In this document: positions 36,089-57,229 of the stretch, one piece after another
Layout of the letters: each line of letters opens with the position of its first letter
Position numbering within the stretch: position 1 is the first letter of the stretch
Source: Candidatus Micrarchaeia archaeon
Lineage (GTDB): Archaea; Micrarchaeota; Micrarchaeia; Burarchaeales; JACRGF01
DNA length: 64,000 bases
Assembly (NCBI GenBank): GCA_038890815.1
Contig: JAWAFC010000002.1
Span: 41,067 to 105,066, forward strand
Direction of reading: 5' to 3'
Translations under genes and position numbers: made by a program
Notes under the pieces: model-generated
The model's input: only the letters and a program-made list of their open reading frames with translations
Told to the model about the DNA's origin: nothing
Database searches by the model: none

Positions 36089-37759
36089 GTGCTGACAAAA
36101 CGAGATGTCGTATTGCTGGCTGTAGTGGTTTTCTTCGCCCTTGCCATGGCCTCAATCGATTTTGGGGAGATTGATGCGCGCACCTATCCCCATCTCCTCC
36201 GCATTGAGAAGGGGGAGGGCGCAAATGGTTTTCATGCAGCGCTCGCGGCACTCAAAGGAAGCGGGAGGACTTTACTCAAGAATGTCGCACTGATTCTGCC
36301 TGCCGTGCTGACAGCCATGTCGACGGCATTCGTTTTTCTCACGCTGCTGCCCATCGGCAGATTTCATGCCTTTTTTGCAGCCGTGCTGTATGCATCCTCC
36401 CCACTTGTGCTCGCGAGCTCCACCTCGGGCGTGTTGCTCCCAGAGACATTTGCCCTATTTTTTTACACGCTTTCGGCCCTCCTCTTTCTCTCCTCGCTGA
36501 GGGTGCCCGCGCTCGCGCTCTCCGCCGGCCTGGCATCGCTGGCCGCCGCAATCCTCTCTCCCGATTTCATCTATGCTGCCCTGGCGCTGTTCGTTGCCGG
36601 CCTCCTCCACTCCGCCCTCCACAAGCACTTCCCCCTGCAGCCAGCACTGCTCGCTCTGCCATTCCTCGCTTTTCCGGCCCTTGCCACTCTCCCACAGCTA
36701 TCATTTTCGTCCACGCTCGATCCCTGGAGTTTGCTCACATTCGGCATTGCAGTGTTTCCCCTCGTGCGGTCCGGGCGCATTGAGAGAGAGGAGGTATTCT
36801 TTGGCGTGCTCGCCCTTCTCTCTCTCATACTGGCATGGCATGCCCGTGCGCTCGCACCGACGGGCCTTGCGCTCGCGGCGGGATTTGCGGCAGGCTCGGC
36901 TTTCACATCACAGCGTCATCCGCTCACGGGGCTGGCGGTGCTCGCCTTTTTTGTCTTTCTGTCAATCACCACCGCCTTTGTTGAGCCAGCGCGCGCGCTC
37001 GCTCTCGCCACTGTTCTCACTGTGCTGATCGCTCTCGGCGCATGGATGTACAGGGAGAAAGTGCCCCCCTTCTACGCCATCTCGCTGGCCATGCTGCTCG
37101 CGCTTTTCCACGGCCTGCTTGCTGCACAATTCTCGAAGCAGGCTATCGGGCCCGAGACAAAAGCAGCCATTGCCTGGAGCGCCAACCTGCCCTCCGGTGC
37201 GCGCGTCGCGCTGTGGGGCGACGAAACCGCTTTCGAGTTCGAAAGTGGCCTGCGCGCGCTCGGGGACAGGAATGCGCTGGCGCGCTATCTGCTGTCAAAC
37301 GCTACCACGACCGAACTTGCGCGCGCCGGAGTCACCCATCTCATCATCCCCTTCAGCGTGTTCGATGATTTCGGCGCGTTGCGCGAGGCTGCGCGCTCCA
37401 CGGCACGCCTTGATGCCTTTGCCCCCACAGGCCAATACGTTGTGTTGGGCAACCGCCTTTATGCTGTATTCTCCTCCAAAACGGGCTGGATGTTCTATCC
37501 TGCCGATCCAGACACGGGCAATCTCATAGAGGGCGAGATCCTGCTCGAGAGTGGCGGTAGCCTGCCGACAGGGCGGCTCCTCCTGCTCAAGGCCTCCAAC
37601 ACCAGCGGGCTGGCTCCCGCTGACAGGTTCATCTATCCACGCGCGGGCCTTGAGATCAATCTGCTCAAGCTCTTCTTTCCCGATAGTTTCGGTAAGGCTG
37701 CTGGCGTGAGAGAGCTCAGCCGGGAACAAGGATTGCTCATACTGGAGGTGAGTGAATGA
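36089..37759 (+). CDS. Polytopic membrane protein (556 aa), possibly a GT-C-fold glycosyltransferase; function unassigned
   Basis: About 13 TM helices in the N-terminal 370 aa, followed by a soluble C-terminal domain. It sits between hmgA and the AglH-like gene with 1-4 nt spacing. Confidence 0.45.
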   Translation: MLTKRDVVLLAVVVFFALAMASIDFGEIDARTYPHLLRIEKGEGANGFHAALAALKGSGRTLLKNVALILPAVLTAMSTAFVFLTLLPIGRFHAFFAAVLYASSPLVLASSTSGVLLPETFALFFYTLSALLFLSSLRVPALALSAGLASLAAAILSPDFIYAALALFVAGLLHSALHKHFPLQPALLALPFLAFPALATLPQLSFSSTLDPWSLLTFGIAVFPLVRSGRIEREEVFFGVLALLSLILAWHARALAPTGLALAAGFAAGSAFTSQRHPLTGLAVLAFFVFLSITTAFVEPARALALATVLTVLIALGAWMYREKVPPFYAISLAMLLALFHGLLAAQFSKQAIGPETKAAIAWSANLPSGARVALWGDETAFEFESGLRALGDRNALARYLLSNATTTELARAGVTHLIIPFSVFDDFGALREAARSTARLDAFAPTGQYVVLGNRLYAVFSSKTGWMFYPADPDTGNLIEGEILLESGGSLPTGRLLLLKASNTSGLAPADRFIYPRAGLEINLLKLFFPDSFGKAAGVRELSREQGLLILEVSE

Positions 37760-38772
37760 ACCTCGATTTTGGCATTTCGCTGACAGTTGTGTTCGCGCTG
37801 TCCTTTTTCACCGTCCTTCTCACCACACCGCTGCTGGCGCGCAAAATAGCCGCGGCCGGACTGCTCGCGCCAGATCTCAACAAGCGCGGCAGGCCCGCCG
37901 TTCCGAGAATAGGCGGCGTGGCGGTGATCTTCGGCTTCGCTCTCGCCACACTGCTCTCGCTGCAGCTCTCTACCCACCTCCTCAACGTCCCCCTCATGCT
38001 GGCGAGCATCGCAACCGTGCTTCTCATTGCGTTGCTCGGTCTTCTCGACGATATCTTGCGCATTCGCGATGTCTGGCGTGTGGTGCTGCCTGCATTCGCC
38101 GCACTCCCCCTCATGGCCGTGAAGGCCGGCACGAGCGTACTCACCATTCCTCTCATCGGTCCGGTGGAGACCGATCTTGGCGTTTTTGTGCTGCCCTTTC
38201 TGGGACCTGTTGATGTCAACCTATATGTTCTCCTTCTCATCCCGATCGGCGTGGTGGCCTCAAGCAATCTCATCAATCTCCTAGCCGGTTTCAACGGCCT
38301 TGAGGCCGGAAGCGGCGCGATCGTCAGCGCCTCGCTCCTGGCCACCCTTCTGCTCCTACCACCAAACCCGGGCACTGCCGTGGCCGGTTTCTTGCTCGCG
38401 GCCATGCTCGGTGCTTGCCTCGCTTTCCTGCCGTTCAACTGGTTTCCGGCGCGCGTTTTTCCCGGCAATGTGCTCACCTATGCCATAGGCGCGCTCATCG
38501 TGGCCGCCGTGGTTTCCGCTAACTTCGAGCGTGCGGGCGTCATCGCGCTCACCCCGCAGATTGTAGAATTCTTTCTCAAGGCGCGCTCACGCTTTCAGGC
38601 CGAGAACTTTGGCAGGCCCGACAAGCAGGGGAGGCTGCACTACAGCGGCAAGATATGTTCGCTCACACATCTCATCATGCGGCTCTTCAAGCCAACCGAG
38701 CCGCAGCTCGTGGTCGTGCTCCTGCTGCTACAAGCGCTTTTCGGCCTGCTGGCCATGGCCAGCGTGCTCTAG
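37756..38772 (+). CDS. UDP-HexNAc:polyprenyl-phosphate HexNAc-1-phosphate transferase (MraY/WecA/AglH family)
   Basis: 338 aa, ~10 TM helices, a DDxxD-like GLLDDILRIRD motif and an NLINLLAGFNGLEAG block conserved in the PNPT family. Confidence 0.7.
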   Translation: MNLDFGISLTVVFALSFFTVLLTTPLLARKIAAAGLLAPDLNKRGRPAVPRIGGVAVIFGFALATLLSLQLSTHLLNVPLMLASIATVLLIALLGLLDDILRIRDVWRVVLPAFAALPLMAVKAGTSVLTIPLIGPVETDLGVFVLPFLGPVDVNLYVLLLIPIGVVASSNLINLLAGFNGLEAGSGAIVSASLLATLLLLPPNPGTAVAGFLLAAMLGACLAFLPFNWFPARVFPGNVLTYAIGALIVAAVVSANFERAGVIALTPQIVEFFLKARSRFQAENFGRPDKQGRLHYSGKICSLTHLIMRLFKPTEPQLVVVLLLLQALFGLLAMASVL

Positions 38773-39491
38773 CGCCCGCGCGTGACCAAATCTATTATGC
38801 TGATTATCTGATTGAGATATTCATAGTCGTGAATGCGACCGATATCCATCCAGTACTCATCAAAAACATAGCCATACACGGGCCTGCCGGCCGCCAGCAT
38901 GGCCGGGAAAACATCTTTGGCGAAGTCCTTGCCCGGCGATATGAAATCGAACACCTCGGGCTCAAGCACATACACGCCAGCATTGATGAGGTTGGTGAGG
39001 ATGGGCTTTTCCTGAAACTTCGTTATGCGCCCATGCTTGTCGACTTCCGCTATCCCGTACTCCAGCGGCATTCCCTGCCTTTTGAGCCCGAGCGTGGCCA
39101 CCGCCCTTTTCTCCCGATGCCATCTTACCATCTTCTGCAAATCAACTGTGGTGAGGTGGTCACCCATCACCACAACAAACGTATCCTTAACCTCTTTTCT
39201 CGCTGGATAGATTGAGCCCGCGGTATTCATGGGCCTTTTCTCCTCAATGTAGGAGATGTTCACGCCCCACCTACTGCCGTTTCCGAAATGCTCGCGGATG
39301 CATTCCCCGAGATAGCCTATGGTCAGCGTGATGTTGGTTATTCCGTTTGCCTTCAGGTTCTCCACCACGAATTCGAGGATGGGCCTTTTGCCAAGCGGCA
39401 ACATTGGTTTGGGAATTGTGTATGTGTATGGCCGCAGCCGCGTGCCTTCCCCGCCACACAACACAAATGCCCTCGTATCATGCATTGACAT
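38769..39491 (-). CDS. Sugar-phosphate nucleotidyltransferase (short G1P thymidylyl/uridylyl-transferase-like)
   Basis: Start at MSMHDTRAFVLCGGEGTRLRPYTYTIPKPMLPLGKRPIL (G-x-G-T-R-L-x-P-x-T motif). The Cys/Trp-rich upstream extension in the track ORF is rejected. Confidence 0.65.
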   Translation of the reverse strand: MSMHDTRAFVLCGGEGTRLRPYTYTIPKPMLPLGKRPILEFVVENLKANGITNITLTIGYLGECIREHFGNGSRWGVNISYIEEKRPMNTAGSIYPARKEVKDTFVVVMGDHLTTVDLQKMVRWHREKRAVATLGLKRQGMPLEYGIAEVDKHGRITKFQEKPILTNLINAGVYVLEPEVFDFISPGKDFAKDVFPAMLAAGRPVYGYVFDEYWMDIGRIHDYEYLNQIISIIDLVTRGR

Positions 39492-40233
39492 CGCCTCTGT
39501 GAGCATCCAGCCACTTGCCCGTGAACACGAATCCATGCACCAGCCCTGCCTTTGCCAGCTCGGGCAACACATCGCGCTCCAGCGAGCCGCTCTTTGGCAA
39601 GAAGTCAAATATCCTTGGCTCAAGCACATATACACCCGCATTCACCAGCCTGCTCGGCTCTTTTCCGGGTGGAGGCTTTTCCACAAAACCCTTGACGCGC
39701 ACTCCCTCGAGCTCCACCGCACCGTAGCGTGAGGCATTCTTCACCTCAGTCAGCGCCATCGTGACCAACGGCCTCTCTCTGGCATGCTGCGCGAGCATGC
39801 TCATGAGATCGAAATCACACAGCGTGTCCGCATACAGCAGCAGGAAGGTGTTTTTCACAACGCTCCTCGCCAGCGCCAGCGCGCCGGCCGTGCCACGCGG
39901 GCTTTCCTCAAACAGGAACCTGATGCTCGGTACGGCATCGCCCGCACTTTCGACCAATGGGCTGTTCCCCACCACAATGACCTCTTGCACGCCGAACCCG
40001 CCGAGCCAGGCGAGGATGCGCGACAACACCGCTCGCTTTCTGTCTGATGGTCTAACACCCTTTCCCCCTGCCAATATGACTGCGGTAGCCGGCATACTCT
40101 CGGCGAGCGCAGCCCTGAGGAGCATCTCTATGGCATGCGAGCGTGACTTGACTCTCTCACCGTCCACCATAGCGTCTATGCGCGCCAGCAGCGCTGGATC
40201 TATGCTGATGGCGATCTTTTCCTTTTGTTTCAT
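39478..40233 (-). CDS. Ribbon-helix-helix (CopG/Arc-like) domain fused to a sugar-phosphate nucleotidyltransferase domain
   Basis: The N-terminal ~45 aa KEKIAISIDPALLARIDAMVDGERVKSRSHAIEMLLRAAL has the beta-alpha-alpha RHH pattern. It is followed by AVILAGGKGVRP...VGNSPLVE...GTAGAL...LLYADTLCDFDL of the NTP-transferase fold. Confidence 0.55.
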   Translation of the reverse strand: MKQKEKIAISIDPALLARIDAMVDGERVKSRSHAIEMLLRAALAESMPATAVILAGGKGVRPSDRKRAVLSRILAWLGGFGVQEVIVVGNSPLVESAGDAVPSIRFLFEESPRGTAGALALARSVVKNTFLLLYADTLCDFDLMSMLAQHARERPLVTMALTEVKNASRYGAVELEGVRVKGFVEKPPPGKEPSRLVNAGVYVLEPRIFDFLPKSGSLERDVLPELAKAGLVHGFVFTGKWLDAHRGDVNA

Positions 40234-40261
40234 ACCATTTCATACTTTGAAAGAAATACTT

Positions 40262-41620
40262 TTAAAGGAGTCGTCTCACCCTCGTCGCCCACTCCTGCAT
40301 GAGCGCGTTGGCCCTCTCCGCGCTCTTTGCCTCTGCGAACACCCTTATGTAATTCTCTGTGCCGGATGCGCGCGCGATCACCCAGCCATCCCTGACATCA
40401 AGTCGAGCACCATCGATTGTGGTGAGCCTGCCCCTCCCAGCCATCTCCTCGGCAATGCGCGCGACGGCCTCGGCCTTCTTTTGTGGGGGGACCTCAATTT
40501 TCGTCTTGGCATTGTAGTAGCGCGGCAATTCAGCGAGCAGCTCCGACAGCCTTTTCCCCTCCACAGCCATGCGCTCCACGATCTTTGCCGCACTATAGAA
40601 ACCATCTTTCCCCCAACTGTGTTCGGGCCATACGACTCCCCCCACCTCCTCACCGCCGATTACTGCACCGATCTCGCGCATCCTCTCACTTATGTATGGC
40701 GCGCCCACCTTGCAGTAGACAGTTTCCTGACCAAATTTTTTTGCGATGTCCTCAACCGCCCTGGTTGTCGACACTGTCGAGACCACGGGCCCCCTATGGC
40801 TTTCCAGTTTTATGCGCGCACAAAGCGCAAAAACCCTATCACCTATGACATAGTTGCCGCGCTCATCGACCATGACAACTCTATCGCAATCGCCATCCCA
40901 AGCCATGCCGGCATCGGCACCCGCCTCCCTGACAGACTCGATCAGATCCTTTATGTTGGCTTCGGTTGGCTCGCTGGCCCTGCCCGGAAAAAATCCATCC
41001 GGCTGACTGTTCAATGCCTCAACCCGGCATCCTAGCCTTCTGAAGAGGGTGGGCCCGATGCCGCATGCCGTGCCATTGCCACAATCCAATATCAGGCTTA
41101 GTCTGGCCCTCGCAATCGCCTTGCGGTCAACGGCCGCGGCCACCGCACGAATGTATTCGCCCTGCGCGCTCCCATCCGCTCTCTCGCCTCCAACCTCCCC
41201 CCACGTGACGTGTTTTCTCCTGCCCTCAAAAATTCTCTCTATCTCCTCCCCCCGCTCTCTCGAGACTGCCATGCCCTGCCCATCAACAAACTTGAGCGCG
41301 TTCCACTCGGGCGGATTGTGCGAGGCCGTGATGATGACCGCGCCGGCCGTGCCCCCCTGTCTCACCCTCCACTCCACGAGTGGCGATGGCGCAATGCCAA
41401 GCCTCACAACATCGTTGCCCGCGCTCAGCAGGCCTGCCAGCACGGCATGCTCGAGCACCTCGCCCGTCACCCTCGTATCCCTGGCCACAAGTATTGTGCC
41501 CTTGCCGGCCCACTCGGCAAATGCATTGCAAAGGCCGGCCACAAAATCGGGCGTCAGCTCATCGTAGAGCCGCCTCACGCCATTGGTGCCGAAATATTTT
41601 GCCACGAAGCCTAAACACAA
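40262..41620 (-). CDS. Phosphoglucomutase/phosphomannomutase (alpha-D-phosphohexomutase family)
   Basis: 452 aa with the TASHNP active-site serine loop (ITASHNPPEWNALKF), a GDGDCDR metal loop (WDGDCDRV), and a sugar-binding GEE...S block. Confidence 0.8.
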   Translation of the reverse strand: MCLGFVAKYFGTNGVRRLYDELTPDFVAGLCNAFAEWAGKGTILVARDTRVTGEVLEHAVLAGLLSAGNDVVRLGIAPSPLVEWRVRQGGTAGAVIITASHNPPEWNALKFVDGQGMAVSRERGEEIERIFEGRRKHVTWGEVGGERADGSAQGEYIRAVAAAVDRKAIARARLSLILDCGNGTACGIGPTLFRRLGCRVEALNSQPDGFFPGRASEPTEANIKDLIESVREAGADAGMAWDGDCDRVVMVDERGNYVIGDRVFALCARIKLESHRGPVVSTVSTTRAVEDIAKKFGQETVYCKVGAPYISERMREIGAVIGGEEVGGVVWPEHSWGKDGFYSAAKIVERMAVEGKRLSELLAELPRYYNAKTKIEVPPQKKAEAVARIAEEMAGRGRLTTIDGARLDVRDGWVIARASGTENYIRVFAEAKSAERANALMQEWATRVRRLL

Positions 41621-41631: not shown

Positions 41632-42003
41632 ATGTCTGAGCGAGACAATCTCCCTATGGCCGAGCTGCTCAGGAGAATAAGAAATTTCCTTGCCGAGCAA
41701 TGGTGGAGGTTTCTCATCGGCATTTCCTTCCTCACCCTCATCAACTTCATCCTGCTCGTGCTGACCGCCAGCGATAAGCTCAAGGCGCTTACGGGCGTGC
41801 GCTTCACTGCCGAGGTGGTGCTGCTTCTCGTTCCGCTCGCCATCATTGCGGTGTGGCTGTGGGGGCTCATTCTCGAGAAGTACATCAAATTCCCACAGCA
41901 GCAGGAGAGGGAGGCCTGGAAGAGAAGCCCCATCTGGCAGGAGACCCATCGCAAGCTCGATGAGATACTGGCCAGGCTTGCCAGGCTGGAGAGAAAGCGA
42001 TGA
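41632..42003 (+). CDS. Small (123 aa) two-helix membrane protein, hypothetical, leading the nucleotide-sugar operon
   Basis: ATG at 41632 with an A/T box (gaaatatttt) ~35 nt upstream. Its stop overlaps (ATGA) the start of the UDP-xylose synthase gene. Confidence 0.4.
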   Translation: MSERDNLPMAELLRRIRNFLAEQWWRFLIGISFLTLINFILLVLTASDKLKALTGVRFTAEVVLLLVPLAIIAVWLWGLILEKYIKFPQQQEREAWKRSPIWQETHRKLDEILARLARLERKR

Positions 42004-42920
42004 GAGTCCTTGTGACAGGCGGAGCTGGCTTCATAGGCTCACACCTGTGCGAATTTCTCTCAAAGAGGCATGAGGTGTGGTGCCTTGACAACCTGCTCAC
42101 GGGCAGCAGGGACAACATCGCGGGCCTCGATGTGAATTTTGTTCGGCATGACATCACACGAGCGCCCCCTCGCGGCATCCCGGCTCCCCAACTCATCTTC
42201 CATCTCGCCTCGCCCGCCAGCCCGCGGGACTATCAGGCGCGGCCAATCGAAACGCTCCTCGCAAATGCTCTCGGCACAAAACACATCCTCGACTACGCTC
42301 TCGCTTGCGACGCCCGTGTGTTGCACGCCAGCACGAGCGAGGTGTATGGAGACCCACTACAGCACCCACAGACAGAGAGCTATTGGGGTAACGTAAATCC
42401 CATTGGCCCGCGCTCCTGCTATGATGAGGGCAAACGCTTTGCCGAAGCGCTGTGCATGGCCTATCACAGGCAAAGGGGTGCAGACGTCGTCATCGCACGC
42501 ATCTTCAACACATACGGTCCGCGCATGAGACCGGACGATGGCAGGGTAGTGCCCAATCTCATTGTTCAGGCGCTTGCCGGCCAGCCCCTCACAATTTATG
42601 GAAGTGGCAGGCAGACGCGCTCCTTCTGCTACATTCAGGATATGGTGGAAGGACTTGTCAGGCTCGCCTTCAGCAATCTTTCGGGCGATGTGTTCAACAT
42701 CGGAAACCCAAAAGAGCATTCCATACTTGAGCTGGCAAAAATAATCCTCGCAGAGACAGGCTCAAAATCTAAAATAGTCTTCAGGCCACTGCCAATAGAC
42801 GACCCACGCAGGAGGAGGCCCGACATCACAAAGATAGCGCGTGCGATAGGGTGGAGGCCGGTCACGCCGCTGAGGGCGGGGCTGCGCGCCACCATAGCAT
42901 GGTTCAAGGAGAGGATGTGA
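42000..42920 (+). CDS. uxs: UDP-glucuronate decarboxylase (UDP-xylose synthase)
   Basis: MRVLVTGGAGFIGSHL Rossmann start plus the highly diagnostic TSEVYGDPLQHPQTESYWGNVNPIGPRSCYDEGKRFAE block. Confidence 0.8.
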   Translation: MRVLVTGGAGFIGSHLCEFLSKRHEVWCLDNLLTGSRDNIAGLDVNFVRHDITRAPPRGIPAPQLIFHLASPASPRDYQARPIETLLANALGTKHILDYALACDARVLHASTSEVYGDPLQHPQTESYWGNVNPIGPRSCYDEGKRFAEALCMAYHRQRGADVVIARIFNTYGPRMRPDDGRVVPNLIVQALAGQPLTIYGSGRQTRSFCYIQDMVEGLVRLAFSNLSGDVFNIGNPKEHSILELAKIILAETGSKSKIVFRPLPIDDPRRRRPDITKIARAIGWRPVTPLRAGLRATIAWFKERM

Positions 42921-43849
42921 TGGCGAGAATACTCATCACTGGCGGGGCTGGCTTTATTGGCAGCAATCTCGCGCACGTGCTGTGTAAAAAGAACGATGTC
43001 GTTGTGCTTGATGATTTCTCCACCGGGAGGAGGGAAAACCTTGAGGGCGCTGACATCGAGCTCGTTGTGGGAAGCGTGTGCGATCTAAATGCCGTCAGGC
43101 GCGCCTGCCAGGGCGTAGATTTCGTGCTACACCAGGCTGCCCTTCCCAGCGTGCCACGTTCGGTGACGGACCCGCTCGCGACCAATGCAGCAAACGTCAC
43201 AGGCACCCTGAATGTGCTCATCGCAGCGCGCGATGCCGGCGTTAAGCGCATAGTGTATGCCTCCTCCTCAGCCGTTTATGGTGAGCAGAAGGCGAGAAGG
43301 AAAAGCGAGCGCCTTTCCCCTAATCCGATCTCCCCGTATGCCGCCAGCAAGCTTGCTGGCGAGCTTTATTGCAGAGTTTTTTTCCAGACCTACGGCCTCG
43401 AGACCGTGTGTCTGCGCTATTTCAATGTTTTTGGCCCGCGCCAGAATCCAACCGGCGAATATGCCGCGGTTGTTCCGAGGTTTATCAGCGCGCTACTGCG
43501 CGGCGTTCCCCCAGTGATTTACGGCGATGGCAGACAGTCGCGCGACTTCACATATGTGGACAATGTTGTGCAGGCCAACATCTTGGCTATGAAGGCAAAG
43601 GGCGCTGCAGGGAAAGTTTTTAACATCGCGTGTGGAAAAGCCTACAGCGTGCTCACCCTGCTTCACACGCTCGAAAAAATCATTGGGAAAAAATCCACTC
43701 CAAAATTCCTCCCTCCGAGACAGGGCGATATCCGCCACTCGCTGGCCGACATCGAGTTGGCGCGGCGCGTGCTCGGTTATAGACCGACAGTTGGCTTTGA
43801 GGAGGGCTTGAGAAAAACTGTTGCATGGTTTGAGGCGAGGGATGTCTGA
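42920..43849 (+). CDS. NAD-dependent nucleotide-sugar 4-epimerase (WbpP/Gne-like, SDR family)
   Basis: Start at MARILITGGAGFIGSNL, with SSSAVYG and the YAASKLAGE catalytic YxxxK. The track ORF start 42851 would overlap the previous gene. Confidence 0.7.
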   Translation: MARILITGGAGFIGSNLAHVLCKKNDVVVLDDFSTGRRENLEGADIELVVGSVCDLNAVRRACQGVDFVLHQAALPSVPRSVTDPLATNAANVTGTLNVLIAARDAGVKRIVYASSSAVYGEQKARRKSERLSPNPISPYAASKLAGELYCRVFFQTYGLETVCLRYFNVFGPRQNPTGEYAAVVPRFISALLRGVPPVIYGDGRQSRDFTYVDNVVQANILAMKAKGAAGKVFNIACGKAYSVLTLLHTLEKIIGKKSTPKFLPPRQGDIRHSLADIELARRVLGYRPTVGFEEGLRKTVAWFEARDV

Positions 43850-45184
43850 ATGAACTATGCAAGCCTCAGGAAAAAAATCAGCGAGAAGAGCGCGCTCGTG
43901 TGCGTGGTTGGCCAGGGCTACGTTGGTATTCACCTTTCGGTCGCTTTTGCGCGCGCCGGCTTCCGCACAACAGGCTTTGACATAAGCGAAAAGCGCATTG
44001 CCGAGCTGTCACGCTGTTATGACAGCGCCGGGGAAGTCGGCGAGGACACGCTCCGCGAGCTGCAGGCGAGCGGAAAGCTCGCCTTTACCACGAATCCAGC
44101 TTCCATCAGCGAGGCTGATTTTATCTTGCTCGCCCTCCCCAGCCTCCTCACAAAGAAAAAGGAGCCGGACCTATCAGCTATTCGCGCTGCAAGCGAAACT
44201 GTCGGAAAGCATATGAAGCGCGGCGCGGTTGTCGTGCTCGAGTCAAGCGTCTACCCTGGTGTGACTGAGGAAGAGGTTCTTCCGCGCCTGGAGGAGCTCT
44301 CTGGCATGAGAGCTGGCATCGATTTCTCTGTAGGCTATTCGCCGGAGCGTGTGAATCCGGGCGACCCAGAACATTCGTTAGAGAAAATTGTGAAGGTGGT
44401 TGCCGGCCTGGATGACGAGACGACCGATCTCCTTGCTTTTCTCTATGGCCACATAACAAAGGCTGGCACATTCAAGGCCAAAAACATCAAGACTGCCGAG
44501 GCTGCCAAAATCATCGAGAACATTCAGCGCGACCTCAACATTGCGCTCATGAATGAGTTCGCCATCATCTTTGAGCGCATGGGCCTTAGCATATGGGATG
44601 TGTTAGAGGTTGCGAAGACGAAATGGAACTTCATACCATTTAAGCCAGGCCTTGTGGGCGGTTATTGCGTACCCGTCAATCCCTATTACCTCGTATACAA
44701 GGCGCGAAGGCTCGGCTATCGCCCAAGAGTCATGCTTGCCGGCCGAAGCACGAACGACTCCATGCCAAAACACATTGTCAGTTTGACAGAGAAGGCGCTT
44801 GCGAGGGTGGGGAAAAAAACAAAGGGCTCGCGCGTGCTGGTGCTTGGCCTGAGCTTTAAGGAGAACGTACGTGATCCGAGGTTTTCCCCTGTCAAGGAGG
44901 TTATTAAGGGTCTGAAGAGAAAAGGCTGTGCTGTGCTCGCGCATGACCCCCTCCTCTTTAAGTTTGATGTGGAGAAGGAATTTGGAGTAAAAAATCTTGA
45001 TAATTTTGGGATGGCTAGTGGTGTGGATGCAATAATTCTTGCTACAGGTCACAACGAATTTAGGAAAATACCTCTGAGCGAGCTGAGGCGAATCTGCAAC
45101 GAAAAGCCTGTGTTGGTTGACACGAGGAATTTCTTCAGCGAAAAGGAAGGGGAATCGGCCGGATTCATAGTAGTGCGACTATAG
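43850..45184 (+). CDS. UDP-N-acetylhexosamine 6-dehydrogenase (WbpO/TviB/WecC-like nucleotide-sugar dehydrogenase)
   Basis: 444 aa. It has the N-terminal Rossmann VCVVGQGYVGIHLSVAFA, a catalytic-Cys region, and the C-terminal VLVLGLSFKENVRDPRFSP block typical of the UDP-Glc/GDP-Man dehydrogenase family. Confidence 0.7.
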   Translation: MNYASLRKKISEKSALVCVVGQGYVGIHLSVAFARAGFRTTGFDISEKRIAELSRCYDSAGEVGEDTLRELQASGKLAFTTNPASISEADFILLALPSLLTKKKEPDLSAIRAASETVGKHMKRGAVVVLESSVYPGVTEEEVLPRLEELSGMRAGIDFSVGYSPERVNPGDPEHSLEKIVKVVAGLDDETTDLLAFLYGHITKAGTFKAKNIKTAEAAKIIENIQRDLNIALMNEFAIIFERMGLSIWDVLEVAKTKWNFIPFKPGLVGGYCVPVNPYYLVYKARRLGYRPRVMLAGRSTNDSMPKHIVSLTEKALARVGKKTKGSRVLVLGLSFKENVRDPRFSPVKEVIKGLKRKGCAVLAHDPLLFKFDVEKEFGVKNLDNFGMASGVDAIILATGHNEFRKIPLSELRRICNEKPVLVDTRNFFSEKEGESAGFIVVRL

Positions 45185-45203
45185 GTCAAGCGCAATCCAT
45201 TGA

Positions 45204-47072
45204 CTAAAATTCAATTTTAAAGGCATCGCTCCATAGCTCAAGCTCAAGCAGCGCCCACAGCTTGTAGGAATACGCGGCCCTACCTTTCCTGTGCTCATTG
45301 AGCATCCTGAACACTTCGTCCTTGCTGAACAGTTTTGCGCATACTCTACCTTCTGCTATTTTTTGCTCAAGGAACTCGCCAACCTCTTTCTTGAACCATG
45401 GACCGAGCGGAATTCCGAACCCACGTTTTTTCCTTTCCAGAATCTCCAGCGGAAGCCACGGCTTAAGGGCGCGCTTGAACACATGTTTAGTCTCGAGCCC
45501 ACGGAGCTTAAGGTCGCTAGGAATTGTCGCGGCAAACTCAACAAACTCGTGATCGAGCAATGGTGCTCTCGCCTCAAGACTGTGCGCCATGCTCGTTCTG
45601 TCTACTTTTGCAAGAATATCATCGGGCAAATAGGTATTGAAATCTGCGTACATCATCTTGTCCAGTTGTGTCTTTGCATTGCGCTTTGCAAAACAGGCCG
45701 TAATCGATTTCTGGGACGCCGCCTTTTTTAAGCTTGCGAGCCTGCCCTCTTTATACAGCCTTTCTCTTTCCTCGTTGCGATAGAACGACACAAGCTCGGC
45801 ATATCTCTCCGGAAGTGGGAGTCGTGCGAGGGCTTCGAACTTCTCTGCGCGCTGCGCGAGCAGGTGCATCCCAACAAAAGAGAGTGCTTTTTTTGCGGCC
45901 GCCACGCCGATAGCTCTGAGTGGTTGTGGGATTTTTGCATATCCTCTAAGCAACATATCAATAACATACCTATCATAGCCAGCGAAATTCTCATCGCCAC
46001 CATCCCCAGACAACACAACCGTCACATAGCGTCTCGCAAACTCTGAGACCATATAAGTCGGAACTGCACTTGCATCTGCGAAAGGCTCGTCTAAGTACCA
46101 TGCAATTTTTGGAAGATTTTTTATCACGTCTTTTGGATAGAGAATCTTCTCATAATGCTTTGTCCCTAGATGCTCGCTTACCTCTCTTGCGAAAGAGAGT
46201 TCGCTGTAGTCACTTTCCTCGAATCCGATGGTGAAGGTCTTGACATCCTCCGTAGCAACTTTCGTCATCGCAGCGACAACCGCGCTGGAATCTATCCCTC
46301 CCGAAAGAAAGGCGCCGAGCGGAACATCGCTTATAAGGCGCATGCTCACGCTCTCTTTGAGCCTCGAAATAATTTCATTCTCCCAAGCCTCCATACTCAT
46401 CTTCAGGGGTCTGTACCATATATCCCAATATCTATGCAACTCCATCCCTTTTTTTGTCACCAATGCATAATGTGCTGCCTGAAGTTTCTTGGCACCTAAA
46501 AAAATCGTTCTCGGCGCTGGAATATACTGCAGTGCTAAGAACTCGTCGAGCGCGCGCCAATCAATAACCTTACTGATCACGCCACTTTCACTCAGCGCCT
46601 TAAGCTCGGATGCAAAATAAAAAACTCCATCGCGCCACGAATAATAAAGTGGCTTTTTCCCTAATCTATCTCTAGCCAAAAAGAGCATCTTTCTCTTTGC
46701 GTCCCACAGTGCGAATGCAAACATCCCACGCAGACGGGACAGGCAGGCTGTCCCCCACTCCTCATATGCATGAACAATTGTCTCTGTATCGCTCTTTGTT
46801 GTAAAGCGATGTCCACGTAGTTCAAGCTCTTTACGGAGTTGTTGGTAATTGTATATCTCCCCATTGAAAACGATATGGACATCCCCATCCTCATTGCTCT
46901 GTGGTTGATGGCCAGTCTTAAGATCTATAACACTTAGCCTACGCATGCCAAGCGCAACGTTTCGCTCAGCAAATATACCCCAGTCGTCTGGCCCACGGTG
47001 ACGTAAGAGCGCTAGCATACGCTTCAGAATGTTTGCGTCGCCAGGACCCAGAAAACCCGCGATGCCACACAC
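45204..47072 (-). CDS. asnB: Asparagine synthetase-like glutamine amidotransferase (AsnB/WbpS-type), paralogue 1
   Basis: 622 aa. The N-terminal MCGIAGFLG has Cys2 as the Ntn nucleophile. The central ...SGGIDSS... PP-loop ATP-pyrophosphatase motif is LSGGIDSSAVVA. Confidence 0.8.
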   Translation of the reverse strand: MCGIAGFLGPGDANILKRMLALLRHRGPDDWGIFAERNVALGMRRLSVIDLKTGHQPQSNEDGDVHIVFNGEIYNYQQLRKELELRGHRFTTKSDTETIVHAYEEWGTACLSRLRGMFAFALWDAKRKMLFLARDRLGKKPLYYSWRDGVFYFASELKALSESGVISKVIDWRALDEFLALQYIPAPRTIFLGAKKLQAAHYALVTKKGMELHRYWDIWYRPLKMSMEAWENEIISRLKESVSMRLISDVPLGAFLSGGIDSSAVVAAMTKVATEDVKTFTIGFEESDYSELSFAREVSEHLGTKHYEKILYPKDVIKNLPKIAWYLDEPFADASAVPTYMVSEFARRYVTVVLSGDGGDENFAGYDRYVIDMLLRGYAKIPQPLRAIGVAAAKKALSFVGMHLLAQRAEKFEALARLPLPERYAELVSFYRNEERERLYKEGRLASLKKAASQKSITACFAKRNAKTQLDKMMYADFNTYLPDDILAKVDRTSMAHSLEARAPLLDHEFVEFAATIPSDLKLRGLETKHVFKRALKPWLPLEILERKKRGFGIPLGPWFKKEVGEFLEQKIAEGRVCAKLFSKDEVFRMLNEHRKGRAAYSYKLWALLELELWSDAFKIEF

Positions 47073-47081: not shown

Positions 47082-48032
47082 TCAACCATTCTCCCTAAAC
47101 CATCTCACAAACTTCTTGATACCTTCATCAATTGACGTACGCGGCTCATATCCAAGCATCCGTCGCGCTTTCGAGATGTCCGCATACGTTATTGGAACAT
47201 CACCGGGCTGAGGAGGAAGATGCGTGATCTTTGCTTTTTTCCCAACATTTTTTTCTATGAGCGTAATAAGCTCGTTGAGCGAAACAGTTCGTGAGCCACC
47301 TAAGTTAAATATCTCGAAACTGAATGGCTTTTCGAGTGCAGCGAGTATTCCCTGTACGATGTCATCTATGTAGGTATAGTCTCTTTTCATGCTACCGTCC
47401 CCAAAAACTGGAATCTCTTTTCCTTCGCTGATGAGGCGAACGAACTTGTGGATAGCCAAATCTGGCCTCTGGCGCGGGCCATAAACTGTGAAAAGGCGTA
47501 GCACTGTCACAGGTATGCCATACAGATGGCTGTAGGTGAAACAGAACAGTTCTGCCGCGCGCTTGCTTGCAGCATACGGTGAGATGGGCTGGGCTATGGG
47601 ATCTTCCTCACTGAACGGCACTTTGTTGTTTATGCCGTACACGCTGCTGGAGGAGCCGAAAATGAATGTTTTGAGTTTCGCGTTTTTGCATGCCTCAAGC
47701 AAGCTGATGGTTCCATTCACGTTTACATCCGCATATTCGAGTGGCCTTTCTAGCGAAGGGCGCACACCTGCCTTCGCTGCGAGGTGGATGACTGCTTCCG
47801 GTTTTGCCTGCGCGACAAGACTCTTCATTCTTTTTGTATCGCGAATGTCAGCCCGGACTAGTTTGAAAAGTCTGTTTTTCTTAAGCGCAGCGATGTTTCT
47901 TTCTTTTATTCTGCGGTTATAGAGGAAGGAATCAAAGTTGTCTACTCCTATGACGTTGTTTCCTCTACTAACCAGCGCCTCACACACATGCGAGCCGATG
48001 AAGCCTGCTGCACCAGTAACTAAAATCCTCAT
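47082..48032 (-). CDS. NAD-dependent epimerase/dehydratase (UDP-glucuronate 4-epimerase-like SDR)
   Basis: MRILVTGAAGFIGSHV with the YAASKRAAE YxxxK catalytic motif. Confidence 0.7.
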   Translation of the reverse strand: MRILVTGAAGFIGSHVCEALVSRGNNVIGVDNFDSFLYNRRIKERNIAALKKNRLFKLVRADIRDTKRMKSLVAQAKPEAVIHLAAKAGVRPSLERPLEYADVNVNGTISLLEACKNAKLKTFIFGSSSSVYGINNKVPFSEEDPIAQPISPYAASKRAAELFCFTYSHLYGIPVTVLRLFTVYGPRQRPDLAIHKFVRLISEGKEIPVFGDGSMKRDYTYIDDIVQGILAALEKPFSFEIFNLGGSRTVSLNELITLIEKNVGKKAKITHLPPQPGDVPITYADISKARRMLGYEPRTSIDEGIKKFVRWFRENG

Positions 48033-49014: not shown

Positions 49015-50177
49015 TCAATCAACTCTCTATACAGCTCATGATGCTTTTTTGCAGTCATGCGAATATCATGATGTTTTCTCGCATAAGCAAATGCTCTCGT
49101 TCCGATTTTTCTATTGAGTTTGGTATCTTCAAGCAGCATGCGGGTGGTCTCAATCAATTTATTGAAATCTCCTTTTGCATGAAAACCGATTTTCTCCTTG
49201 CACAAGACCTCATCCGGGTCAACATTTAGCGAAACAACGGGAGTTTTCCTCAGCCAAGCCTGAATAAACGTATTGGGAAAACCAGCGCTATCGCTTGTAT
49301 CGACAAGCACACTTGCTCTGGCAATAATGGCGTTAACTTTTTCTAAAGATTGAAATGGAAGTATTTCGACATTTTCCGTTTTCTTAGCGAGCTCGAGCGT
49401 TTTCGCGAAAATGTTGTAAGTCTTTCCCATTATATCTTTCTCCTGTATTGCTCCGACCATGACAAACTTATAATGTGGGAATTTTTGCGCGAGCTCGATA
49501 AACTGCATTGGAAATTTATAGTCAGCAGTCCTCCCTACCCACACTGCAAACGGAGGATCGGATTTTTTTGGGAGACTTTTCGGTACCGGGTGGCCAGAAG
49601 GAATGATACGAATATCCGCATTAGGCATGCATTGAGCCATTGCTTTGCGGAGGTATTCTGCAGTAGCAATAATTACATTGGCGTTTTTGAGCCCATAAAG
49701 ATAAAGTCTTTTTTTAATTGTATTTCTGAAAAACCCCCTCCACATATTTCCAGACAGCGTACAGTCATCGATGTGCGCGATGGAGAAGACAAAAGGTCTG
49801 GCATTCTTCTTTGCATGATGCGCGAAATAACCCGTTGCGATGTTGCTCCCCCTCTGGTGATAAATGTCCGCTTTAAAGGAGTTGAGCACGCGCGTGAAGA
49901 AAGGGTGAGAATAAGTAAGAAAGGAATTGAGCGCGAAGAAGGGAGCCGCTTCCACCAAATCCCATAGCGAGCGCTTGAAAGTCCTCACCTTGTGGAGTAT
50001 CTGTCCCTTCCTAACAATTGTTTCTGGCTGCCCCTCGTCATCAACCAAATAGTGTGTTTGCCAACCAAGCCTTTGTAACTCCTTCCCGATCAAGTAAAGC
50101 TGTATCTCAGCGCCCCCCACTCTTCTGCTCACGAGCGGATGACCCATTGTATAGTAGCAAACGCTTTTCCCGCTCAT
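49011..50177 (-). CDS. Family-4 (GT-B) glycosyltransferase
   Basis: 388 aa with a GT-B fold pattern and a C-terminal E-x7-E-like region. The ATGA overlap with the downstream GT2 gene indicates an operon. Confidence 0.6.
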   Translation of the reverse strand: MSGKSVCYYTMGHPLVSRRVGGAEIQLYLIGKELQRLGWQTHYLVDDEGQPETIVRKGQILHKVRTFKRSLWDLVEAAPFFALNSFLTYSHPFFTRVLNSFKADIYHQRGSNIATGYFAHHAKKNARPFVFSIAHIDDCTLSGNMWRGFFRNTIKKRLYLYGLKNANVIIATAEYLRKAMAQCMPNADIRIIPSGHPVPKSLPKKSDPPFAVWVGRTADYKFPMQFIELAQKFPHYKFVMVGAIQEKDIMGKTYNIFAKTLELAKKTENVEILPFQSLEKVNAIIARASVLVDTSDSAGFPNTFIQAWLRKTPVVSLNVDPDEVLCKEKIGFHAKGDFNKLIETTRMLLEDTKLNRKIGTRAFAYARKHHDIRMTAKKHHELYRELIE

Positions 50178-51856
50178 CTCTTGCTCACCATGATGTTTCC
50201 CATTACGAGATGTCTAAGCCCAGACCGCTCCATTGTGTAAAGCGCATCTGTAGGCGAGCACACCATCGGCTCACCATGGAGGTTGAAGCTCGTGTTCAGC
50301 ACGCCACCGATTCCTGTCTCTTTTTCAAAATATTCCAGTATCCTGTAGTAGTCAGGATTGCTCCAATTTTCGAGTATTTGTGGCCTGAGTGTGAAATCGG
50401 CGGGATGCATGGCCGCGACAAGCTCCTTGCGCGCGAGCGGCTTCGAGCGGAAGGCCATTATCATGTAAGGTGCAGGAATCTTTTTCGGATTGATAAGATA
50501 GTCATCTGCTCTTTCCGCGGACAGCGTGGGCGCAAATGGCATCCAAAAGTCCCTGCTCTTTATCTGCTCGTTGATGATGCGTACGGTCTCCCATGTGCTT
50601 GGGTTTGCGAGAATTGCCCGGTTCCCGAGACTCCGTGCACCCCATTCCATTCTGCCGGAGCAGCGTGCGACTATCTCGCCCTCAGCAAGTAGGCCCGCGA
50701 TTTCTTTGGCGATATTCTTACATCGTCTTACATCGTAGTTTTTCCCGAGACGCGCGAGTGCCTCCTTGATTTCTTTTTCGCCGAACTCCATCCCTAAGTA
50801 GAGGTCCTTTAGTGGTGTAGTAGGCGCGTCCTGTCCAGCCAATTCCTTGTAGGCGTAGAATACCGCACCGAAGGGCGTACTTTCGTCTCCGCATGATGGC
50901 AACGGGTAGAGTTCCTCCACTTCTGGAAGTTCGCTGATGAGCATGTTAGCCTTGACGTTCATGAAAACGCCACCTGAGAGAATAACACGCCTTACGCCTG
51001 TTTTTTTTACTGCAGCTCTCACCCACCTCACAAGCAGGTCTTCTGTCAGCCGCTGCACACTCGCTGCAATGTTATCGAACCTCTCGTGTTTGAGCATTTC
51101 ATCTAGATAGAAGAGCGAGCGCTGTGTGTTAAAAGCCGACTTGAACGAGAGCTCGTTCTCATCTAACCAAATCATGGGCTTAAACACCCTCTCATAAGTC
51201 TTTTTGTAATACTCTTTCGCATAGGGCGCGAGGCCCATGAGTTTGTACTCATGCTCGAGTGGCTTCATTCCCATATAGATTGTTGTCGCGGCGTACACAA
51301 GGCCAATTGAGGCCTCCAGCGGTGTTGCGGCGATCCTTCTGATTCTTCCCTCGCGCGCAATGTTGACCGTCGCGCACAGGCCATCTCCCTCGCCATCGAG
51401 CGTGAGCACGAGGGCTTCCTCGATTCCATCAGTCATGCCAAAATAGCCCGCATAGGCATGACAGGTATGGTGGTCTATGAAATGGATTTTACTCTCCGGA
51501 ACGCCAAGTCTTTTCAAGAGGATTTTTTTAACTGCCTTTCTGCCAGCCGCGCTCCTTCTTTTCCGAATAAAGTGAACAAGTGGGAGGGCAATGACGCGAA
51601 GAATCGGGTGGGCGTAGTCTATTGTTGCCCAAATGCTTCTTGCGGCGCTCGGCATGCCAAGTGCAACCCCACGTGCCTTTTCGTAGTCGGAATGATTTTC
51701 TGTCGAAACGACCGCAACCGCATCCAATTCTTCGCCCGTGATCCCCTCGCTTTCAAGAACCCATTTCCACGAATTTGCGGGTACTGCGTCCTCATTTTTC
51801 CTGCGCGTAAACCTTTCCTCGCTCACCGCCCTAACTATTTTTCCGTCTTTGAGCAA
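50174..51856 (-). CDS. NodU/CmcH-family carbamoyltransferase (COG2192). The annotated TTG start truncates a conserved N-terminus; an in-frame ATT at complement 51899-51901 may be the true start.
   Basis: ...LLKDGKIVRAVSEERFTRRKNEDAVP matches the family N-terminal block. The 14 codons upstream in-frame (IYILGIVFGHNSTVA) match the family consensus M-Y-I-L-G-I...H-D-S-A-A, with ATT in place of ATG. Confidence 0.7.
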   Translation of the reverse strand: MLKDGKIVRAVSEERFTRRKNEDAVPANSWKWVLESEGITGEELDAVAVVSTENHSDYEKARGVALGMPSAARSIWATIDYAHPILRVIALPLVHFIRKRRSAAGRKAVKKILLKRLGVPESKIHFIDHHTCHAYAGYFGMTDGIEEALVLTLDGEGDGLCATVNIAREGRIRRIAATPLEASIGLVYAATTIYMGMKPLEHEYKLMGLAPYAKEYYKKTYERVFKPMIWLDENELSFKSAFNTQRSLFYLDEMLKHERFDNIAASVQRLTEDLLVRWVRAAVKKTGVRRVILSGGVFMNVKANMLISELPEVEELYPLPSCGDESTPFGAVFYAYKELAGQDAPTTPLKDLYLGMEFGEKEIKEALARLGKNYDVRRCKNIAKEIAGLLAEGEIVARCSGRMEWGARSLGNRAILANPSTWETVRIINEQIKSRDFWMPFAPTLSAERADDYLINPKKIPAPYMIMAFRSKPLARKELVAAMHPADFTLRPQILENWSNPDYYRILEYFEKETGIGGVLNTSFNLHGEPMVCSPTDALYTMERSGLRHLVMGNIMVSKR

Positions 51857-56530: not shown

Positions 56531-57229
56531 CTATTTTTTCCCTACATACAAAAGCTCGGAGCCGTTTCCTGGGAGAAAAGGGCCTCCCGGAAGCAAGTAG
56601 CTCAACATGAACATGCGGTAACTGAAAGATTCGCACACAACTGTTTTGAACCCGCTTATCTCAAGTGCTTGCCTAAGCGACAGTCTTGTAAACGGCTTTA
56701 CGTGCGTGGGGTCCGACCAAAAGCTGAATCCCACTTTTTCAATGTCCGGAGTCCGAATGATGATTATGCCGTCCCTTTTTAGTCGGCTGTGGAGACCTTT
56801 AAGCACTGAAACAGGGTCATCCAGATGCTCCAGAACATGGTTTAGGATTAGCACGTCCACAGAATTTTTTGCCAAAGGAATCTTTTTCCGCACGTCAGCC
56901 TGACAGAAAACAATCCCTTTTGCTTCTAGTTTTTTTCTGTATGTCGCATCGATATCCACCGCAATCTTTTCCTTTATCCTCCGGTCCATCAGAGAGAGCG
57001 CCCAGCCATCGCCAGGCCCAATCTCCACAACCGACAGGCCTGGTTTGTTGCAGTACCGGTCAATAAAAAATTTCAGAAATACCGCGTAGTGGTTTTTTTG
57101 TCCAATTTGTGAGACAGCCTTCCTTTCCAACAAGTAGGTAATCCACCTGGAAAGCAATCCCTTCTTTTCCCGATATCTCTCTGCGACCTTTAGGTATCCC
57201 ATTGAATTCGCCTTACCTCCTTTTTTCAT
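56531..57229 (-). CDS. Class I SAM-dependent methyltransferase
   Basis: VVEIGPGDGWALSLM glycine-rich SAM motif I, followed by DVLILNHVLEHL (motif II/III). Confidence 0.6.
   Translation of the reverse strand: MKKGGKANSMGYLKVAERYREKKGLLSRWITYLLERKAVSQIGQKNHYAVFLKFFIDRYCNKPGLSVVEIGPGDGWALSLMDRRIKEKIAVDIDATYRKKLEAKGIVFCQADVRKKIPLAKNSVDVLILNHVLEHLDDPVSVLKGLHSRLKRDGIIIIRTPDIEKVGFSFWSDPTHVKPFTRLSLRQALEISGFKTVVCESFSYRMFMLSYLLPGGPFLPGNGSELLYVGKK

Follow-up and report, generated by a model that had tools for sequence, protein, structure and literature searches.

In Escherichia coli O121, the asparagine synthetase-like protein WbqG is described, in the part of PMC7468200 that cites King et al. 2010, as required for conversion of N-acetylgalactosaminuronic acid (GalNAcA) to its amide (GalNAcAN). 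The same paper reports that glucuronamide is abolished in Porphyromonas gingivalis lacking PGN_1234, a WbqG homologue, and a Helicobacter pullorum wbpS mutant has an N-glycan with N-acetylhexosaminuronic acid (HexNAcA) in place of the corresponding amide, HexNAcAN (PMC6025236). Here, we describe a glycan locus in a 64,000-nt stretch of DNA from a Candidatus Micrarchaeia archaeon (contig JAWAFC010000002.1, positions 41,067 to 105,066 of the forward strand; hereafter, the window, to which coordinates refer unless another locus is named). The locus holds three genes of the AsnB family: AsnB1 (45204..47072, minus strand), AsnB2 (53099..55033, plus strand) and AsnB3 (60505..62262, plus strand). A previous, sequence-only reading of the window proposed that a WbpP-like epimerase, a WbpO-like dehydrogenase and an AsnB-type amidotransferase at 42920-47072 make a uronamide sugar. 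All three family assignments are supported by Pfam, NCBIfam, PDB comparison and homology to the O121 cluster (42% identity for the dehydrogenase, 44% for the epimerase and 38% for the amidotransferase). On balance, we favour a reading in which the locus would direct assembly of a lipid-linked oligosaccharide, most likely an N-glycan, using three AsnB-family enzymes that are predicted to form uronamides.

The AsnB paralogues score as WbqG-like amidotransferases

All three paralogues carry glutaminase and synthetase domains (Pfam); AsnB1 is a 622-aa protein with GATase_7 and Asn_synthase. AsnB1 is 100% identical to an NCBI protein from a Candidatus Micrarchaeia metagenome-assembled genome, and AsnB3 corresponds to NCBI protein MEM4389315. 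We compared the paralogues with WbqG, taken from the O121 reference cluster of E. coli strain 16-9255 (L089), and with AsnB of E. coli K-12. Alignments to WbqG extended over the full length of the proteins, with identities of 38% for AsnB1, 31% for AsnB2 and 33% for AsnB3 (384, 288 and 327 bits, respectively), whereas alignments to E. coli AsnB covered only the first ~365 residues (172-177 bits; 34% identity for AsnB1 over this partial alignment). The top profile for all three paralogues was TIGR03108, well above the AsnB model PRK09431 (NF006949), as is also the case for WbqG. Scores against TIGR03108 and PRK09431 were 646 and 325 bits for AsnB1, 482 and 293 bits for AsnB2, 513 and 327 bits for AsnB3, and 528 and 268 bits for WbqG, compared with 241 and 1046 bits for E. 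coli AsnB. None of the paralogues reached the PRK09431 cutoff of 499 bits, and their matches to this model were fragmented. All three, and WbqG, exceeded the cutoff of the broad model TIGR01536, such that an annotation of 'asparagine synthase' is uninformative for these proteins.

A neighbour-joining tree of 91 sequences, comprising the three paralogues, 86 homologues from polysaccharide loci and, as the only references, WbqG and E. coli AsnB, agrees with the profile scores. In this crude tree, which has a single outgroup and resolves in a star-like manner, the paralogues fall with WbqG and the 86 homologues, a long branch away from E. coli AsnB. AsnB3 is the sister of AsnB1 (44% identity), and AsnB2 lies near the base. 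Assignment by profile to a WbpS-like or a true AsnB class had been set beforehand as the comparison that could overturn the uronamide proposal; the paralogues score as WbqG does. We conclude that they resemble WbqG and not true AsnB, and that the best reading of this resemblance is a predicted role in uronamide-sugar synthesis.

The Cys2 nucleophile and the SGGIDSS PP-loop, which the sequence-only reading had noted in each paralogue, were confirmed by alignment; SGGIDSS fits the SGG(I/L/V)DS(S) pattern of a loop for ATP binding and adenylation. By E. coli AsnB numbering, the other glutaminase residues are R49, N74, G75, E76 and D98; these and Cys2 are kept by all three paralogues, by WbqG and by 86/86 of the locus homologues. 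The start codons are GTG, TTG and ATG for AsnB1, AsnB2 and AsnB3, respectively, followed by TGC or TGT. For AsnB2, the Logan gene call (P0121, 622 aa) begins at a downstream ATG and loses the N-terminal Cys. We place the start at the TTG at 53099, without which the protein would lack the conserved MCGI N-terminus; a Shine-Dalgarno-like GGTGA lies 5-10 nt upstream of this codon. In the synthetase site, AsnB1 has all three motifs typical of the family, EPFADxS, G(D/E)GGDE and xKxD(R/I)xxM (as EPFADAS, SGDGGDE and AKVDR), and AsnB3 has DLTGDAA, GEGGDE and AKVDR. Given that their active-site make-up appears to be as in O121 WbqG, AsnB1 and AsnB3 are the likeliest uronamide formers, and we consider it probable that both are glycan amidotransferases with this activity.

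A remodelled synthetase site in AsnB2

The synthetase site of AsnB2 differs from that of its paralogues. EPFADxS is replaced by EPISLLP, the next motif reads TGNGGDE, and the family Lys of xKxDR is Ser (VSSDV). Glu348 of E. coli AsnB reportedly controls acyl-adenylate formation. The residue in this column is Asp in AsnB1, WbqG and 76/86 homologues, Glu in AsnB3 and Asn in AsnB2; across all loci compared, 140/152 AsnB-like open reading frames (ORFs) have Asp or Glu. AsnB2 is thus without the Glu348-equivalent acid, the family Lys and the EPFADSS motif. The Asn is not a sequencing error, since the 12 closest homologues of AsnB2 (P0122-P0133; 41-47% identity) also have a non-acidic residue at this position. 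In these homologues, G[NSA]G[AG]DE and EPxNLxP are conserved, the Lys is lost and two residues are inserted (KMGFGYNI), whereas the MCGI start and the PP-loop are retained; one homologue is named as from a Methanobacteriota archaeon. As judged from these alignments, the subfamily to which AsnB2 belongs is conserved and at least partly archaeal, and its synthetase site is remodelled. Separately, in bacterial polysaccharide loci unrelated to these, ~4% of the AsnB-like paralogues have N, Q, I or M at the Glu348 position (L010, L062, L140, L146, L152 and L170), and the acid has apparently been lost there repeatedly.

We compared the neighbourhoods of five AsnB2-type loci. In four of the five (L090/L091, L092, L094 and L095), a gene similar to that for the family 4 glycosyltransferase (GT4) GT4b ends 0-14 nt before the AsnB gene. 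In the window, GT4b itself (51922..53097, plus strand; Pfam) ends 1 nt before AsnB2, and homologues 46% and 35% identical to it lie directly upstream of the AsnB2-type genes in L090 and L092. A carbamoyltransferase gene is found nearby in three of the five loci and AglB (STT3) in two (L092 and L094); no nucleotide-sugar dehydrogenase gene was found within 10 kb of the AsnB2-type gene in any of them. A scan of metagenome_contigs with an alignment of the subfamily, made for additional contexts, returned 80 loci with ordinary family members (32-39% identity) and none of the subfamily; the back-translated patterns (NGEIYN and LSGGxDSS) were generic. These loci were used only as a second background sample, described below.

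Two of the five loci have further features. In L094 (GCA_964572035.1), an oligosaccharyltransferase of the STT3/AglB type that carries an FKBP_C domain is encoded at 1-2247, followed at 2244-13999 by a family 2 glycosyltransferase (GT2), a GT4, a GT4-AsnB-methyltransferase module, another GT4, a GT4-AsnB2-type module and three methyltransferases; the modules of the window are closely repeated there without a dehydrogenase. In L095, a carbamoyltransferase gene directly follows the AsnB2-type gene (11947-13698), and genes for the large and small subunits of carbamoyl-phosphate synthetase lie beside glycan genes (17444-21759), which hints at a dedicated supply of carbamoyl phosphate.

The subfamily's own conserved pocket motifs, its lack of a nearby dehydrogenase, and its linkage to GT4b-like and carbamoyltransferase genes would fit an alternative in which uronic acids are not the acceptors for every paralogue. 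One or more of them, chiefly AsnB2, might instead amidate a non-uronic carboxylate, borne by the glycan or by its carrier, or might ligate another nucleophile, together with a dedicated GT4. The closest solved relative of AsnB1, TsnB9, is a hydroxyamidotransferase that acts on a non-amino-acid carboxylate, indicating that the fold tolerates varied acceptors. However, the glutaminase site of AsnB2 is intact, and glutamine-derived ammonia is hence the likely nucleophile; the genomes with AsnB2-type genes may encode dehydrogenases elsewhere, and the window has two; and TIGR03108 is still the top profile for AsnB2. We regard this alternative as unlikely, albeit the strongest of those we considered. 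The sequence-only reading had all three paralogues probably active and making several uronamides. This view holds insofar as the glutaminase site and PP-loop are kept in all three, and it is weakened by the altered synthetase site of AsnB2 and by the missing dehydrogenase genes in related loci. That AsnB2 acts on a uronic acid is, in our estimation, a possibility a little short of even. Its reaction is probably of the same type as that of AsnB1 and AsnB3, with another acceptor and in partnership with GT4b, although we hold this view loosely. A further proposal, which we consider doubtful, is that GT4-locked AsnB2-type proteins carry out an undescribed glycan modification, either amidation of a non-uronic carboxylate or GT-coupled amidation on a lipid-linked intermediate. 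If so, N-glycans of DPANN and other archaea would bear amide-capped sugars, so far unknown in archaea.

The epimerase/dehydrogenase pair and its linkage to AsnB1

The epimerase (42920..43849, plus strand; 309 aa; NCBI protein MEM4389301) is a short-chain dehydrogenase/reductase (SDR) of the WbpP/WbgU/TviC type, expected to act as a UDP-HexNAc(A) 4-epimerase. Its best matches among solved structures are WbgU (271 bits) and WbpP (265 bits), compared with ~100 bits for E. coli GalE. WbgU and WbpP are genuine 4-epimerases of UDP-N-acetylglucosamine (UDP-GlcNAc) and UDP-N-acetylgalactosamine. As expected of an extended SDR, the protein has the GxxGxxG NAD site (GGAGFIG) and sequences for the catalytic Ser and YxxxK residues (SSSAVYG and YAASK), and it shares a GDxRHSxAD segment with WbgU. 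Its best NCBIfam model is TviC. The dehydrogenase (43850..45184, plus strand; 444 aa; NCBI protein MEM4389302) is most likely of the TviB/WbpO UDP-N-acetylhexosamine 6-dehydrogenase type, with all three UDPG_MGDP_dh domains (PF03721, PF00984 and PF03720) and the GGYC motif of the catalytic Cys. It scores 369 bits to the TviB model, versus 233 bits to the archaeal UDP-N-acetylmannosamine (UDP-ManNAc) dehydrogenase model and 162 bits to that of AglM-type Ugd. Its best PDB matches are a UDP-ManNAc dehydrogenase (195 bits) and Methanosarcina mazei 3g79 (188 bits); to our knowledge, no WbpO/TviB structure exists.

The glycan locus is arranged as five units of alternating orientation (A-E). The epimerase and dehydrogenase belong to unit A (41656-45184, plus strand), which is opened by orf115 (41656..42003; 115 aa; no Pfam family), followed by UXS, the UDP-glucuronate decarboxylase that makes UDP-xylose (42000..42920). 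The junctions within unit A are 4 nt, 1 nt and 0 nt: orf115 overlaps UXS by 4 nt, the epimerase start overlaps the UXS stop by 1 nt, and the dehydrogenase begins on the base after the epimerase stop. UXS was identified unambiguously by PDB comparison, with 342 bits to human UXS1 structures versus 136 bits for the next-best family. AsnB1 is on the opposite strand, where it closes unit B (51856 down to 45204) and is convergent to the dehydrogenase gene, the two stop codons being 19 nt apart; hence, the trio is not one operon. The adjacency of the three genes described in the sequence-only reading therefore stands, and their membership of one transcription unit does not.

The operon mate immediately upstream of AsnB1, at a distance of 9 nt, is SDR3 (47082..48032, minus strand). 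SDR3 scores 297 bits to 5u4q and 241 bits to 6zl6, compared with 162 bits to WbpP, ~143 bits to GalE and 115-150 bits to canonical RmlB. We take 6zl6 to be the UDP-glucuronate 4-epimerase of Bacillus cereus and 5u4q, despite its deposited name, to be a Klebsiella epimerase of the same type. With these as its best solved relatives, SDR3 is a probable UDP-glucuronate 4-epimerase. Because AsnB1 is co-transcribed with SDR3 and convergent to the epimerase/dehydrogenase pair, its substrate could be galacturonic acid (GalA) or glucuronic acid (GlcA) instead of GalNAcA.

We collected the nearest named-genome relatives of AsnB1 from 80 loci (40-47% identity), which are almost all bacterial (Acidobacteriota, Methylomirabilota, Patescibacteria and others), with one Woesearchaeote. 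The background sample comprised those named-genome and metagenome loci with at least 3 kb on each side (n = 79). A GT4 gene directly adjoins AsnB on the same strand in 26/79 loci; 20 of the 79 have at least two AsnB paralogues and 6 have at least three. A WbpP-like epimerase with at least 40% identity is encoded in 4/79. The complete trio is contiguous in a Clostridia metagenome-assembled genome (MAG; L009), where AsnB is next to a TviB-like gene and a WbpP-like gene (57%). A near-identical set occurs in an NC10 MAG (L045), with AsnB, a WbpP-like gene (59%), a GT4, UXS and a TviB-like gene, and the trio is also found in L161. We conclude that linkage of the trio is recurrent, yet in a minority of loci, and that the steadiest partner of the AsnB family is a GT4.

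These data bear on whether the position of AsnB1 beside the pair is incidental. In that case, UDP-GalNAcA made by the pair would be incorporated unamidated, as in Vi antigen and many capsules, and AsnB1 would amidate GalA or GlcA derived from Ugd and SDR3. The operon structure favours this view, as do the best solved relatives of SDR3 and the occurrence of Ugd-like genes beside AsnB paralogues in 7 loci versus TviB-like genes in 4. Nonetheless, tviB and the epimerase gene lie ~9 kb from wbqG within the single O121 cluster, such that separation is no argument against cooperation, and the trio is contiguous in the three loci named above. We consider incidental adjacency improbable, somewhat more so than a non-uronic acceptor. 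AsnB1 may serve the neighbouring pair, whose convergent operon would provide GalNAcA as its acceptor, or it may act on GalA/GlcA supplied by its operon mate. We put forward GalNAcAN as its specific product only tentatively.

Proposed pathway and weight of the evidence

From the family assignments, conserved catalytic residues, gene order and O121 homology described above, we infer a pathway in which every substrate, the timing of amidation and the final glycan are predictions. Sugar activation enzymes and Ugd would supply UDP-glucose and UDP-GlcA. UXS would convert UDP-GlcA to UDP-xylose, and SDR3 probably converts it to UDP-GalA. The translationally coupled epimerase/dehydrogenase pair (42920-45184) would convert UDP-GlcNAc to UDP-GlcNAcA/UDP-GalNAcA by two steps in either order. 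A PF00953-type transferase is predicted to initiate the chain on polyprenyl or dolichyl phosphate, one GT2 and three GT4 enzymes to extend it, and Wzx to flip it. Each AsnB enzyme would hydrolyse glutamine at its N-terminal Cys, adenylate a sugar carboxylate at the PP-loop and transfer ammonia to give the uronamide (COOH to CONH2), with either the nucleotide sugar or the lipid-linked residue as the target. AsnB1 and AsnB3 most likely work in this way, by the Ntn-glutaminase, PP-loop adenylation and ammonia-channel chemistry that is standard for the AsnB fold. The pervasive GT4 coupling and the phenotype of the H. pullorum mutant suggest that amidation goes together with one specific transfer step. 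Further decoration of the chain could come from the carbamoyltransferase and the two methyltransferases. In L092 and L094, AglB lies near AsnB2-type modules, and by analogy N-glycosylation through AglB is the probable fate of the product. The predicted composition is thus a glycan with amidated uronic acids, xylose, carbamoyl and methyl groups.

Several observations weigh against this reading. AsnB1 is not co-transcribed with the epimerase/dehydrogenase pair, and the operon structure of the locus loosens the argument from the specific trio. Any nucleotide-sugar dehydrogenase was found in the flanks of only 11/79 background loci, and a TviB-like one in 4/79, indicating that the tie of the AsnB family to uronic-acid synthesis genes is loose, at least locally. 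AsnB2 is without the synthetase-site residues described above. Curated equivalog cutoffs are also missed: the dehydrogenase falls below the TviB cutoff of 592 bits, which O121 TviB passes at 644 bits, and the epimerase (256 bits) falls below the TviC cutoff of 760 bits, as does the O121 epimerase (509 bits). Likewise, none of the three paralogues reaches the TIGR03108 cutoff of 816.9 bits, the best being AsnB1. Given that WbqG itself scores only 528 bits, we reasoned that this cutoff marks a narrower, PEP-CTERM-linked equivalog and not uronamide function. Neither AglB nor a recognisable Wzy is encoded within the window, such that the final acceptor may be protein, lipid or polymer, and the literature we searched contained no glycan structure from a Micrarchaeon.

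A housekeeping asparagine synthetase among the three paralogues is very improbable: although all pass TIGR01536 and small DPANN genomes have few genes per biosynthetic task, WbqG passes this non-discriminating model too, PRK09431 scores fall far below those of a real AsnB, another sequence stands where E. coli AsnB has TTIRAS, and each paralogue gene sits among, and overlaps, glycan genes. We therefore return to uronamide formation as the preferred reading for the paralogues. Under this reading, the locus predicts a heavily charge-neutralised surface glycan, in which amidated uronic acids are combined with carbamoyl and methyl groups. DPANN cell surfaces are thought to mediate host attachment. 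In the literature searched, we found no paper linking uronamides to archaea. The generic label 'asparagine synthase' appears to hide glycan amidotransferases in archaeal genomes, and the GT4-coupled subfamily with an altered active site, as represented by AsnB2, offers a concrete biochemical target.

Other genes and features of the window

The stretch containing AsnB1 is also present in an independently assembled Logan contig (L001). G+C content is 0.57-0.63 up to ~44 kb and 0.44-0.54 over the remaining glycan locus, and G+C at third codon positions falls from ~0.68 before ~42 kb to ~0.50 across the glycan locus. By gene, G+C content is 0.560 for the epimerase, 0.525 for the dehydrogenase and 0.485 for AsnB1, such that the trio spans a composition gradient. 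The drop in G+C content, together with nearest AsnB1 homologues that are mostly bacterial at only ~48% identity, suggests that part of the glycan locus was gained by an old or unsampled horizontal transfer.

Upstream of unit A, a gene at 37756..38772 (plus strand) encodes a PF00953 HexNAc-1-phosphate transferase-like protein of the AglH/WecA/MraY family (Pfam, 99 bits; weak MraY-family NCBIfam matches), the probable initiating transferase. Its start is overlapped by the gene for a 556-aa protein (36089-37759, plus strand) that has numerous hydrophobic stretches, is soluble in its C-terminal part and gave no match in Pfam, NCBIfam or PDB. This protein may serve the glycan pathway as a polymerase, as a GT-C-type enzyme or in some other membrane role; related loci, such as L095, hold unannotated proteins of similar size. 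Between the transferase gene and unit A, on the minus strand (38769..41620; Pfam and gene calls), are two NTP_transferase genes and a phosphogluco/phosphomannomutase gene. The second of the two nucleotidyltransferases (39478-40233) is fused to an N-terminal ribbon-helix-helix (CopG-like) domain, an unusual combination of a DNA-binding fold with a sugar-activating enzyme.

Unit B is opened by a NodU/CmcH-type O-carbamoyltransferase gene (50174..51856, minus strand; Carbam_trans_N and Carbam_trans_C). This gene and the two methyltransferase genes described below had been predicted by the sequence-only reading and agree with it at the level of Pfam families. The carbamoyltransferase gene is followed by GT4a (49011-50177, minus strand) and a GT2 (48061-49014, minus strand), both assigned by Pfam and NCBIfam, and then by SDR3 and AsnB1. 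Unit C (51922-55033, plus strand) consists of GT4b, the conserved partner of AsnB2, and AsnB2 itself, assigned to its divergent subfamily by Pfam, NCBIfam and alignment.

Unit D (59280 down to 55023, minus strand) begins with Ugd (57964..59280), a UDP-glucose 6-dehydrogenase and predicted source of UDP-GlcA that scores 479 bits to both the AglM and TuaD NCBIfam models and only 84 bits to TviB. Ugd and UXS, which had been described as a pair, are both present; they lie ~15 kb apart, and are a pair only metabolically. Next in unit D are a sugar-1-phosphate nucleotidyltransferase (57213..58043; Pfam NTP_transferase from residue 30), the S-adenosylmethionine (SAM)-dependent methyltransferase 1 (56531..57229; Pfam) and a 501-aa Wzx/MOP-family flippase (55023..56528; Pfam Polysacc_synt). 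As called, to 58043, the nucleotidyltransferase ORF overlaps Ugd, and its true start is probably near 57960. Unit E (59336-63124, plus strand) contains GT4c (59336..60517; Pfam), which overlaps the AsnB3 start by 13 nt, AsnB3, whose assignment as WbqG-type rests on Pfam, NCBIfam, alignment and the tree, and the SAM-dependent methyltransferase 2 (62252..63124; Pfam), which overlaps the AsnB3 end. The best NCBIfam models for GT4c are the PEP-CTERM/XrtA-system glycosyltransferases stp3 and stp2, and TuaC.

Outside the glycan locus, a T2SSF-domain membrane protein similar to platform proteins of archaeal type IV pili and archaella is encoded ~5 kb upstream (31717-33486, minus strand), and the corresponding pilus- or archaellum-like system may be a target of glycosylation. 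A 1255-aa ORF at 16363-20130 (minus strand) has a C-terminal Roadblock/LC7 domain as its sole recognisable domain. A tRNA-Trp gene at 20494-20583 (plus strand) is 90 nt long, exceeding the standard tRNA length, which we read as an intron, typical of archaea.

Comparison with known systems

The mutants of H. pullorum WbpS and P. gingivalis PGN_1234, the latter affecting a glucuronamide linking sugar, show conversion of a uronic acid to its amide in protein-linked glycans, and we propose the same role here. Their relation to the window proteins is drawn only through WbqG and TIGR03108, and both systems are bacterial, with a single paralogue. A search for archaeal AglU, as a possible amide-forming analogue, yielded nothing. 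Like E. coli AsnB (1CT9), the paralogues are built from two domains, with a Cys1 glutaminase site and a PP-loop, and D351, E352, K429 and K449 are common to both. They differ from it in the C-terminal ~250 residues and in having EPFADxS as the family motif where E. coli AsnB has TTIRAS, and they do not reach PRK09431.

At the family level, the closest described proteins, by sequence, are the eps_aminotran_1 amidotransferases of bacterial exopolysaccharide (EPS) loci. The top NCBIfam models of the window AsnB proteins (TIGR03108) and of GT4c (stp3 and stp2) are those of PEP-CTERM/XrtA EPS loci, and loci with multiple AsnB genes interleaved with GT4 genes are common among the nearest homologues. 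However, every one of these scores is below its curated cutoff, neither an exosortase nor a PEP-CTERM protein was seen, and the context is archaeal, with AglB beside related modules.

The closest known system, as far as sequence comparison can place it, is the uronamide pathway of E. coli O121 and Pseudomonas aeruginosa O6. The likeness consists in the same three protein families within one glycan cluster: wbqA(tviB), wbqB and wbqG in O121, and wbpO, wbpP and wbpS in O6. Tight linkage of the AsnB-like gene to a GT4 gene is common to the window and O121, where wbqG overlaps the downstream GT4 gene, and in both the amidotransferase scores well above the AsnB model with TIGR03108. In contrast to these bacterial systems, the window has an archaeal (DPANN) host and three amidotransferase paralogues rather than one; the amidotransferase beside its epimerase/dehydrogenase pair belongs to a convergent operon that also includes a probable UDP-GlcA 4-epimerase; it adds UXS, a carbamoyltransferase and two methyltransferases; and its initiating enzyme is PF00953-type, with no recognisable Wzy. 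Apart from the narrow curated cutoffs, which WbqG and the O121 epimerase also miss, the sequence tests place the window proteins in these families. We conclude that the locus, read in this way, would extend a known bacterial pathway to a new lineage without overturning current understanding of it.

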